64,000 bases of DNA. It comes from Escherichia coli O157:H7 (GTDB lineage: Bacteria; Pseudomonadota; Gammaproteobacteria; Enterobacterales; Enterobacteriaceae). The position numbers were made by a program. Where the stretch lies: assembly GCF_013167455.1 (NCBI RefSeq), contig NZ_CP038328.1. One strand, 5' to 3'. Shown in pieces: positions 27,001-30,000 of this stretch (the first letter of the stretch is position 1; each line of letters opens with the position of its first letter).

Positions 27001-30000
27001 CCAGCAACCGGAGAGAGTTCGACGGCGGCATCATTGCCCACGCCGGAGGTGCCGGTGGCTTCACGCACGGTACCGGGGCAGGTGGCGTTGATCCGCAGGC
27101 GCTTACGACCAGCGGCAACATCAGCACGCAGAGTTTCATTTTCAGCTCTCGCATCGGCTAATTCCCTCGAGTATTTTGCATCGAGCGCAGCAACATCACG
27201 CTGGCGCACCTGCATGTCAGTAATGGTGGCATTCGCCTGTTCCAGCTCTCTGGCTTTTTTATCGCGCTGCGCTTTGTAGGTGAGCGCGTTGTCACGGTAA
27301 TGGTTTGTTGCCAGCCACAGCGCACCACAGCCAACCGCCATGACAATAATCACCACACACAGAACACGGTTCATCTCTCTTTCACCCCACCAGTCCCGAT
27401 AACGTCAGGACTCGCCAGGCGGTGGAAAAGAAAATGGCAACCAGCATGACTAAAAATGAAATGCCGACAAGTACACAGAGGCTCTTCACCAGCGTTATGA
27501 GTTTATCTGATATCATTAGCCACCCCATCAATCCGCCTTTGTTATTTTCCCTTTGCCTGTATCAGCCAGGACAAAATCAATCAGCATATTCGCTTCATTT
27601 ACCAGCGTACGGATTTTTGATACATGCGCGGCTTTAACCTGTTTCCACTCATTCAGCCCGGTAGCAAACACACTGGCAATGTTTTTATCCCGTTTCATGT
27701 CAGCACAAGCCTGGTTGAGTTCTTCCATCACGCTCATTTTACGGGGATTAACGACAAAACCCTTCGTCCAGTACTCGTAAAGAACATCGTCGCACTCTTC
27801 CTGATACCGGATGACCTTATCGCGGATTTCGGGTTTTACTTTGTTGGGATTAATGGTTTGTAGCCAGCCGGCAAGTTTTCGAAGTGGCATGGACACCATA
27901 TTGCGTTGTTTCCCATCCTCAGCAACCATAACGATTTCCGTTATAGTTGACGCAAAACGCTGTCTTAACTTAGCCAACTGTGATTGCCAGGCCAGCCCCA
28001 TCCCCGCAACGACAGGTTTCATGGGAACGTATGGTTCGCCATTATGGTTAACTACATAAAGAGAGTTGCCGTGAAACGGCACGGCCATCATATTCATCGG
28101 TTATTTCCTTTTAGTGATGAACCTTGTCTCACAGGAATCCAGCCCACAGAAAGGCACCGACAGCCAAACCGGTATCCTCAAGGGTCATCCTGAAAGGTTC
28201 TGTGTTGTGAGATGCGCGTGAGATGCGCAGAAATGACAAAGGCATCATTACGGTGCCTGAGTGTTAAACAACTGTTTTGACTTTATTCACTTACATTTTG
28301 CCAATTTGCAGGATTTCGTGTTATCCGTCCATGTAAGCAAACCTCATTTTTCAGCAAAATATTCTGCTTATCTGTCGATTCCCCAGCACGCCAGCGCGCT
28401 CTCCTGGTCACGACGGGATACCTGACCGTAACAGTTATTTGAGCGAATACGGCAGTCCCTGCCACCGTCCTTAATCCACCAGCGAATCGCTTCGCAGGCA
28501 CCTTTTCGATCTCCTGCATTAATCCGTCTGTAAAACGTCGACGGGAAACACTTACCGGGGCCAATGTTGTACGGACAGAATGACGCAATCCCCGCTTTCT
28601 GGGGTTCGGTCAGTGGCACTCTGATGTTTTTCTCCACCCATGCCAGCGCCTTATCACGCTCAATGGCGTTAACCCGGTCGCATTTTTCCTTCGACAGCTT
28701 CATGCCAGGAATAACAGGCTTACCATCCACCCGGGTGGCTCCACGGCAGATGGTCCAGATACCCGCACCATCACGGTATGCTGTGGTGTGGTTACCTTCC
28801 TTTTCATCCAGAAACTGGTCGAGGATTTCAGGCGCAGACGCCCCTGCACCAATCAGCGCCAGAACGGCAGCCGACAGGCCGTATCTGATTTTTGCGTTCA
28901 TGGATATTTATCAGGGTTTATCGATTTCAAATCCCTGGATATGTTAAGTCTTCAGGCCAGCGGTGGAGTCTTCAGAGAACCCGTAATTATTCCCGGTAGT
29001 TTTCCTCTGTAGGTTATCAACACATCCTGCGCCTCTAAAATTACGGGACGCTTTTCCGGTAACGGACCATCCCCTTCACATAACCCGGCAGCAACATCCA
29101 TGAAAAACTGCTTCGCCTGCTTTTTCGCCTCAGCTTCGTAAAACTCCAGCGTGGCACCTTCAGTACGGTCAAGACTAATCGCCACATCTGGCAACAACAG
29201 TGACGGATACCCACCAATTTCCAGTGCCACAGTAACAGTAATCTTATCCGGGTAATTATTTATCCCTTTAACAACCAGTTCGTATTTTTTCTTCATCGCT
29301 TTACTCTCCCCGCGCCGCCTTACGACGGTCCTCTCTGATTTTGAAATACAGGTTAGTCAGATACGTCAGCAGGCCAAACAGCAGACTCCCCAGCACACCT
29401 ATCGCCACCCACTGGGACGGAGAGACTTTGTCCAGCAGCTGCAGTAACCAGTATCCCGTCCCCACCGCTGACGTGGTGTATGACACACCCGTTGTGATTT
29501 TTTCCATCTGGTACATACCCCGTCTCCCGCAATCCGGAAGCTCACAACAACAGGAGGGGCATCAGCTCACACCGACAGCCCCTGCGTATGGTTACATCAT
29601 CATTTCGCCGCCAGGCTGAGGCTCACTGCTACCGTCAGGCTGAGACACAACGCCATCTGAAACAGCACTGTCACCCGCGCCGTCTTCAGGCTCAGGAGCA
29701 GCCGGTCCCCCCAGCAGCTCATCCAGAATGGCATCCACTTCAGCATCAAGACGCGCCTCAAGATTCTGGCGGAGTTGCTGTTTCAGTGCGCTTCTGACTT
29801 CTTCAGAGCGCAGGACGTCCTTCACTGCTTCAGCAGTGACCAGAGATTTTATTTCTGACATGGGATTTTCTCGTTGAAAGGTGTTGTTAAGAAAGTTGCT
29901 ACGAAATGAGAGGCTCTTCGGGTTTTGTTCCGGCTGACTGGCTGGCGCTGATTTTTTCCGCCGCCGCGGCATCAATCTTTTTGCGTATATAGTTCCGGAT

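Follow-up and report, generated by a model that had tools for sequence, protein, structure and literature searches.

A putative structured RNA leader, with a tandem repeat at its 5′ end, before the antirepressor-like gene of an O157:H7 prophage

Why does a perfect 11-bp direct repeat stand in front of an antirepressor-like (ant) gene? The question is raised by a stretch of 64,000 nucleotides from Escherichia coli O157:H7 (contig NZ_CP038328.1), called the window here, in which a lambdoid prophage of the E. coli O157 type carries its late genes on the minus strand. An earlier note had described the repeat, the spacer that holds it and an inverted pair close by, and had proposed a binding site controlling the gene. 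The description is accurate: GTGAGATGCGC occupies 28207-28217 and 28218-28228, perfect and head to tail; 270 bp separate the end of the lysozyme open reading frame (ORF) at 28368 from the start of the ant-like ORF at 28097; and the inverted pair consists of TCTCACA at 28127-28133 and TGTGAGA at 28206-28212. The best explanation, which we hold to be reasonably probable from sequence comparison, is that the repeat forms the 5′ end of a leader, a cis-acting structured RNA that would gate the translation of ant. The elements concerned are:

28207..28228, minus strand: tandem repeat, GCGCAUCUCAC GCGCAUCUCAC on the coding strand
28105..28233, minus strand: whole leader, about 130 nt; covariance matches of 149.5 bits with model R1 and 141.9 bits with model R2
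27528..28097, minus strand: downstream Ant-like gene, 189 aa, with P22_AR_N and ORF11CD3 domains; ATG at 28097-28095

The leader and its family

When the window was shuffled 300 times with dinucleotides preserved, a perfect 2 × 11 tandem appeared in 2 cases (mean 0.01 per window), and the repeat is thus not explained by composition alone. It is placed 110 bp upstream of the start codon of ant, and its coding-strand RNA reads GCGC-AUCUCAC-GCGC-AUCUCAC. BLAST comparisons show the 3′ part of the spacer to be linked to the ant gene and not to the lysozyme gene, and some of the matches start exactly at 28228, the first base of the repeat. When six contexts were aligned, about 135 nt were found to be conserved before different genes. 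The leader precedes ant, downstream of either lysozyme or an M15 peptidase, and KilA-N genes, downstream of Rz, and in each case it is itself preceded by a terminator hairpin that is non-homologous between contexts.

A scan of phage contigs with an invariant 17-mer yielded 120 loci. All loci collected at this point, mostly phage contigs, have 125 sites with 94 distinct leaders, and a word typical of a P22-type subfamily gave at least 120 more loci, so that more than 200 phage contigs carry the leader. Among 5,426 complete E. coli genomes the leader is present in 879, with a median of 3 and a maximum of 10 copies, and is never annotated in RefSeq; the window holds a single copy according to both covariance models. 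The two-unit form recurs with 100% identity in 106 phage records and with at least 99% identity in 565 E. coli genome records. A degenerate 3′ pattern, applied to data with one genome per species, added members in Photorhabdus, Xenorhabdus, Arsenophonus, Yersinia, Serratia, Pantoea, Erwinia, Tatumella, Brenneria, Citrobacter, Enterobacter, Kluyvera and other genera. One P22-type leader (locus L260, 736-869, 106 bits) lies on a 4-kb contig of a Saccharibacteria metagenome-assembled genome labelled Candidatus Nanosynbacter; this leader belongs to the same identical-sequence group as those of enterobacterial phage contigs, and the contig is likely a binning contaminant.

The end of the leader lies 7 nt upstream of the ATG at 28097, and the same arrangement is kept in each of the 115 loci whose downstream ORF is complete. 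The proteins encoded next are KilA-N, KilA-N plus P63C, P22_AR_N plus ORF11CD3 (the ant of the window), Rha, ANT/KilAC or HNH_3 proteins, and every downstream gene examined belongs to this KilA-N/Rha/Ant/HNH set. Up to three leader-gene cassettes can stand in tandem after the lysis genes. At locus L013 (2847-5453, on a P22-like contig; also at L212, L015 and L114), three consecutive cassettes follow Rz in the order KilA-N plus P63C, then KilA-N plus ORF11CD3 with a small ORF, then KilA-N, and the leaders there are of two subtypes. The leader resembles the 5′ border of a gene cassette that can be exchanged. As it marks this border in cassettes that phages swap, it may be a recombination joint as well as a regulatory module.

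No family of Rfam 15, including C4 (RF01695), sar (RF00262) and isrK (RF01394), matches between 27400 and 29000 of the window at E values up to 10; around the leaders of P22 and L013, only chance-level matches were obtained, at most 24.5 bits and far below gathering. The family is apparently undescribed in Rfam 15 and in the literature searched, and is a good candidate for an Rfam entry.

Covarying helices

Two covariance models were built as a pair to avoid circular alignment: R1 contains only P1, P2 and P3, and R2 only P1, P0 and P4′. Alignment A3 derives from R1; A5 derives from R2 and comprises 84 distinct sequences, including distant genera. The pairing between the P1 loop and a downstream site (PK), P2 and the alternative pairings of ACCGG (P3 and P4′) were first spotted by eye, and P0 is the long helix found by RNAalifold in 48 distinct leaders. 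In the window the parts are:

28214..28228, minus strand: hairpin P1, unit 1 and the first 4 nt of unit 2, with arm GCGC at 28228-28225, 7-nt loop AUCUCAC at 28224-28218 and arm GCGC at 28217-28214
28207..28213, minus strand: linker AUCUCAC, the remainder of unit 2, joining P1 to the next helix
28198..28204, minus strand: P2 5′ arm CACAGAA, partner 28151-28145
28145..28151, minus strand: P2 3′ arm UUCUGUG, partner 28204-28198
28179..28197, minus strand: P0 5′ arm CCUUUCAGGAUGACCCUUG (RNAalifold), containing the anti-Shine-Dalgarno CCUUU
28107..28126, minus strand: P0 3′ arm CAAGGUUCAUCACUAAAAGG (RNAalifold), ending with the Shine-Dalgarno AAAGG at 28111-28107
28169..28178, minus strand: P4′ 5′ strand AGGAUACCGG, whose ACCGG alternatively pairs with UCGGU at 28159-28156 as hairpin P3
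28133..28142, minus strand: P4′ 3′ strand CUGGAUUCCU, supported by covariation
28127..28132, minus strand: PK target GUGAGA, partner of the P1 loop, immediately 5′ of the P0 3′ arm

The conservation of the first repeat unit is that of base pairing. The P1 stem occurs as GCGC/GCGC, GCGU/ACGC, GUGUC/GACAC, GCAC/GUGC and GUGC/GCAC, and P1 folded alone reaches -7.1 kcal/mol (z = -4.3). The loop UCUCAC covaries with GUGAGA, 85 nt downstream, in at least eight versions, among them UCUCAC:GUGAGA, UCACAC:GUGUGA, UCGCAC:GUGCGA, CCGCA:UGCGG, UCGCAU:AUGCGA, CGCCC:GGGCG, CCACAU:AUGUGG and CGCAU:AUGCG. This six-pair helix is paired in 95.9% of cells, with pair types such as UA43/CG29, GC57/AU13/UA11 and CG42/UA8. 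At the sequence level P1 and PK together have the pattern of an H-type pseudoknot, in which the loop pairs with a downstream strand and loop and target covary. The inverted pair of the earlier note was thus rightly singled out, in that its pairing covaries across the family, with the difference that the upstream partner is shifted by one repeat unit; the TGTGAGA arm reported there is the linker copy of the loop.

P0 is supported by changes on both sides in 11 of 14 inner and 3 of 3 outer pairs, with 97.2% and 90.5% of cells paired, respectively, and in the consensus its CCUUU pairs with the Shine-Dalgarno AAAGG. Segments of P0 are swapped with compensation in divergent members, where GAUGA:UCAUC becomes AAGCGA:UCGCUU or GUGAG:CUCAC. 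Similarly, AGGAUACCGG:CCGGAUUCCU is replaced by GAAAGCCG:CGGCUUUU, and the ACCGG column covaries with both of its 3′ partners, the proximal (P3) and the distal (P4′). P2 positions show up to four Watson-Crick pair types each. P0, P4′ and PK, which are outside R1, are supported on A3. PK and P2, which are outside R2, are 93.7% paired on A5 versus 77.6% in shuffles, and their covariation score of 0.400 versus 0.125 is reached by none of 500 shuffles, the slid controls staying at or below 0.091. For all seven helices on A5, 95.7% of cells are paired versus 86.1% in shuffles; both sides change in 32 of the 42 pairs, and the score is 0.286 versus 0.111 (0 of 500 shuffles; slid controls at most 0.049). 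Single positions show three or four Watson-Crick types, e.g. AU44/GC15/UA14/CG7. On these comparisons, the seven helices of the leader are supported by compensatory changes.

That the spacer instead encodes a small protein is extremely improbable. There are ORFs of 39 aa (28248-28129, minus strand) and 35 aa (28114-28221, plus strand), and several GenBank phage records have features called 'hypothetical protein' under the match. Against a coding role, family members differ by single-nucleotide indels and the 39-aa ORF is not conserved; the internal ORF of the O104:H4-type allele, with its AUG in CAGGAUGA, meets a stop after only 5 codons; a unit of 11 nt is not divisible by three; and RefSeq annotates nothing here. 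The 'hypothetical proteins' in the spacers of several phage records probably need correction. A leader bound by CsrA was also considered and rejected, as CAGGAUGA and UGAGGAU are invariant in the main subtype only; at the positions of the GGA motifs divergent members have GAGAA, GGGUG or AAGCGA, which covary as paired bases of P0 and P4′.

The second repeat unit and the transcript

No conservation of the second unit as a sequence was found in the homologous leaders. In relatives it is no copy of the first, as in GCGCUUCACAC GCGCGACUUAUG and GCGCUUCGCAC AAGCGUAAAUAA, and a pairing of the second unit with GUGAGA as a trait of the family was rejected, since it is 41.2% paired versus 41.2% in shuffles. 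Relatives without the repeat have equal length here, and so nothing has been inserted. Relatives with the same loop have near-copies of the linker, such as AUUUCAC and ACUUCAC, so that one or two substitutions, aided by the self-complementary GCGC arms, suffice for a perfect repeat. The exact repetition is lineage-specific. It probably arose as a side effect of the palindromic arms and of such linker substitutions, and is probably either incidental or modulatory.

Could the duplication be neutral, a product of replication slippage or a contingency tract of no structural role? Slippage commonly yields short perfect tandem duplications, and Tandem Repeats Finder gives 24 short tandem rows for the window. 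We nevertheless regard this as highly improbable, as the relatives without the repeat are of the same length and the units coincide exactly with the hairpin and the linker of a covarying structure. Nor do one-unit or three-unit alleles occur: synthetic loci of both kinds had no match of at least 99% in the 5,426 E. coli genomes, and their best full-length matches, at 94%, correspond to the 11-nt gap. A transposon footprint was rejected on the same equality of length and on the lack of copy-number variation.

The reading of the earlier note, taken to mean that the two GTGAGATGCGC units are tandem duplex-DNA sites at which a regulator acts on an ant promoter within the spacer, has in its favour a repeat that is perfect, close to the start codon and unexpected by chance. 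It is very unlikely all the same, as the second unit is not conserved and the variation of the first obeys base-pairing rules. In addition, a scan for sigma-70-like promoters, which can miss atypical ones, found 0 sites on either strand of 27400-29000 versus 2.1 expected. An own promoter, as for a moron-type gene, was rejected by this consensus scan. No LexA box (CTG-N10-CAG) was seen by eye. Some leaders begin 9-20 nt after the upstream stop codon and have no room for a promoter of their own. The only other copy of the 11-mer in the window (GCGCATCTCAC on the plus strand, 10946-10956) is within coding sequence, inside the 3′ end of a 232-aa tail-gene ORF (10892-11590, minus strand), where it encodes CMRGCEMR; neither R1 nor R2 matches there, and this copy is for that reason probably coincidental and unrelated to the spacer repeat. 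What stands of the proposed binding site is that the repeat belongs to a cis-acting control element for the ant-like gene; the tandem protein-binding site does not stand, given a second unit that is not conserved and pairs at shuffle level.

With no promoter-like site and with leaders abutting stop codons, control is most likely exerted at the RNA level. The leader is most likely transcribed within the phage late operon, in the order holin, lysozyme, leader, ant, Rz; in P22, the genes are annotated as a single late operon, and no promoter is marked from gene 15 to rha. The surroundings of the leader are:

29516-29301, minus strand: holin ORF
28901-28368, minus strand: lysozyme ORF
28231..28257, minus strand: terminator-like hairpin GGCACC-GUAAU-GAUGCC followed by UUUGUCAUUU, upstream of the leader
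27374-26907, minus strand: Rz/Rz1 ORFs

The molecule would be the minus-strand RNA of the late transcript, judging from the orientation of the gene and of the upstream terminators and from the involvement of the Shine-Dalgarno, together with the missing promoter-like sites, the leaders that abut stop codons and the single late operon of P22. In the window the terminator-like hairpin has one mismatch (G-to-A, 28241-28257) and folds at -5.6 kcal/mol versus -14.3 in the O104:H4-type allele; this weakening could increase read-through into the leader in lysogens.

A possible translational gate and its counterparts

In the predicted ground state the Shine-Dalgarno is paired: the minimum-energy fold of the window sequence contains P1 and P0. 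The Shine-Dalgarno lies within a conserved covarying helix, and the leader occupies a same-strand 5′ untranslated position directly before the start codon, both as in leaders that sequester the Shine-Dalgarno. The leader most likely gates translation, and would switch between two states. Unit 1 and the first four bases of unit 2 would form P1, the rest serving as linker to the next helix, and P0 and P4′ would form a long interrupted helix in which the pairing CCUUU:AAAGG blocks initiation on ant. P2 and PK cross the P0 helix and would give either a pseudoknotted fold or an alternative conformer with a free Shine-Dalgarno. The closed conformer would consist of P1, P0 and P4′, possibly with PK as a loop-bulge contact, and hide the Shine-Dalgarno; the open one would consist of P2, P3 and PK and leave it free. 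Two such conformers are favoured over a long-loop pseudoknot, because P2 crosses P0 without a linker and ACCGG has two covarying partners. The genes gated in this manner would be toxic DNA-binding or nuclease genes (Ant, KilA-N, Rha, HNH).

The second unit may bear on this balance. Only in this lineage does the linker AUCUCAC copy the P1 loop, and it can pair with UGUGAGA (28133-27); in a nested-energy calculation the exact copy does so while P1 stays closed. In nested energies, which are only indicative, the gap between the open and closed conformers is 2.0 kcal/mol with the linker of the window versus 3.8-5.2 with other linkers. Computed as A minus B, the gap is +2.0 kcal/mol in the window, with a median of +9.3 over 83 family sequences and about 9-10 in main-type rows; the P22-type rows were disregarded, the P0 columns being mis-mapped for that subtype. 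The duplicated loop would thus offer GUGAGA a second, nested partner and move the balance by 2-3 kcal/mol towards the open conformer.

Several points weigh against a two-state leader on the minus strand. Pseudoknots are ignored in the energies just given, and the window sequence overall folds no better than its shuffles (z = -0.25). The shuffle statistics of covariation are inflated by the kinship of the sequences, although the slid controls retain this kinship, and as most sequences were collected through conserved seed words, these words are invariant partly because of the way of collection. Between the 5′ strands of P2 and P0, which cross, the linker is 0 nt, so that no nested structure holds both, and a long-loop pseudoknot may still be the fold adopted. 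The strand test (56 G-U versus 36 A-C cells, with one terminal pair removed) favours the minus strand weakly, and an antisense RNA in place of the minus-strand RNA is formally possible.

Alternatively, the RNA may be structured for another purpose, as an RNase III or RNase E processing or stability element between cassettes of the late transcript, as a switch responding to ligand, temperature or protein, as a ribozyme, or through P1 acting in trans on other copies, with loop:target specificity types as in c4 of P1/P7. P0 and P4′ would make an interrupted duplex of about 25 bp resembling an RNase III substrate; further points in favour are the at least eight loop:target versions, the up to 10 copies per genome and the up to three cassettes in tandem; and a pseudoknotted architecture with covarying helices is typical of switches. 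Such a role seems doubtful to us, because nearly all members have the Shine-Dalgarno within the conserved helix, the genes that follow are non-metabolic, few unpaired nucleotides are universally conserved as a ligand pocket would need, and no Rfam ribozyme or riboswitch model matches.

The gating leader resembles generic Shine-Dalgarno-sequestering leaders (RNA thermometers, translational operators, riboswitch expression platforms) in its conserved helix between anti-Shine-Dalgarno and Shine-Dalgarno and in upstream competing pairings that could free the latter. It differs from them in being a new sequence family with a fold of its own, made up of the P1 hairpin, the loop-to-junction pseudoknot, a P2 that crosses P0, and the duplicated 3′ partners P3 and P4′, and in having no known ligand, protein or temperature cue. 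As for antirepressors, the RNA regulators in the literature searched are sar, c4, CA, IsrK and 24B_1, and none of them is this leader.

IsrK, in the isrK-orf45-anrP region of Salmonella prophage Gifsy-1, gates a translationally inactive mRNA that encodes a prophage antirepressor. As such gating of an antirepressor mRNA it is the closest functional parallel known to us, with the differences that the isrK model of Rfam has no match, no separate short transcript is evident here, and architecture and genomic position are not the same.

The closest analogue in logic is c4 of P1/P7, an antisense RNA of the immI (icd-ant) operon whose loops pair near the ribosome-binding site of ant on the same transcript (PMC12197685). 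In both, the antirepressor would be controlled at the RNA level by short loops that pair beside the ribosome-binding site, and loop and target covary between phages as specificity types. Unlike c4, the leader has one loop instead of two, has no homology to it in sequence or model, shows no evidence for a processed trans-acting RNA, and lies in the late operon after the lysis genes and not in the immunity region, where it also serves KilA-N, Rha and HNH genes.

The sar antisense RNA (RF00262) controls ant of P22 post-transcriptionally at the ribosome-binding site (PMC10732415, PMC12197685), and the leader would do likewise. However, sar is transcribed separately and convergently, from its own promoter to its own terminator, whereas the leader is encoded in cis, has no promoter-like site and does not match the sar model. 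A homologue of sar is present elsewhere in the window (10100-10166, plus strand, RF00262, 66.7 bits). It lies directly at the start of a 292-aa Ant-type gene (9220-10098, minus strand) within a P22 immI-like module (9220-10875) that also has an 84-aa Arc/Mnt-like ORF (10621-10875). With sar beside the immI-type ant and the leader before the other, this prophage carries two ant-type genes, which would be under different RNA-based controls. Other small RNAs were set aside as identities for the leader: AsxR and AgvB are located 3′ of stx or of other morons, the Pas RNAs and STnc100 upstream of holin, and 24B_1 is only predicted to bind 'within d_ant'.

The family also reaches rha in P22 and phi80, a gene that prevents phage growth when expressed in hosts deficient in integration host factor (IHF). 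Leaders stand directly before rha of P22 (39503-39634) and of phi80 (43642-43766, 91 bits), and phi80 has a second copy (45236-45344) before PHI80_66. The annotated GTG starts of both rha genes lie inside the leader, at 39575 in P22 and 43739 in phi80; judged by their place after the leader's Shine-Dalgarno, the true starts are likely the ATG codons at 39645 and 43776, respectively, so that these annotations probably need correction as well. IHF is reported to regulate the expression of rha (PMC4936722; annotation note of phi80). No IHF consensus was seen in the leader by eye, no scan having been run. The gene of the window is an Ant-type (P22_AR_N) protein and not Rha. The leader before rha of P22 and phi80 offers a defined element that can be mutated to ask how Rha toxicity depends on IHF status.

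Taken further, and only tentatively, the leaders may constitute a new class of pseudoknotted two-state riboregulator, a standard 'lock' that temperate phages across Enterobacterales have in their late operons before interchangeable cassettes for toxic DNA-binding or nuclease proteins (Ant, KilA-N, Rha, HNH). The loop:target pair would then act as a specificity code, a host or phage factor would open the lock, the leader would supply the long-sought cis element through which IHF controls rha of phi80 and P22, and the loop duplication in the Stx-phage lineage would re-tune it towards the open state.

If the leader does gate translation, temperate phages of E. coli, Salmonella, Shigella, Klebsiella and symbionts of insects or plants depend on it for the timing of their antirepressor-like and KilA-N/Rha proteins, which are able to poison the cell or to trigger induction of other prophages. 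It would then be at work in Shiga-toxin (Stx) and related prophages, with up to 10 copies per O157 genome, and would bear on cross-induction among prophages that share a host and, through it, on the release of toxin. Identity of the region is 99.7-100% both to Stx1 and Stx2 phages such as VT2-Sakai, Min27 and phi24B and to O157:H7 chromosomes. The present prophage appears to be a toxin-less relative of the Stx phages. The interval from the Q-like antiterminator (33245-34066) to the SASA/NanS-p-type esterase (30229-32166) has neither stx genes nor tRNAs, and STnc100 (32307-32473, 101.6 bits) is the only element there; a sok RNA of the hok/sok type lies at 36097-36271 (114 bits).

Two further sets of repeats occur in the window. 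The large tandem repeat at 18597-19190 has 3.3 copies of a 162-bp period at 95% identity, is also scored with a period of 324 bp, and is presumably a repeated domain of a structural gene. The cluster of short repeats at 40729-41079, comprising TCTGTA in 3.8 copies, a 10-mer in 4.9 copies and a perfect CGTGACATTT in 2.6 copies, may represent replication-origin iterons.

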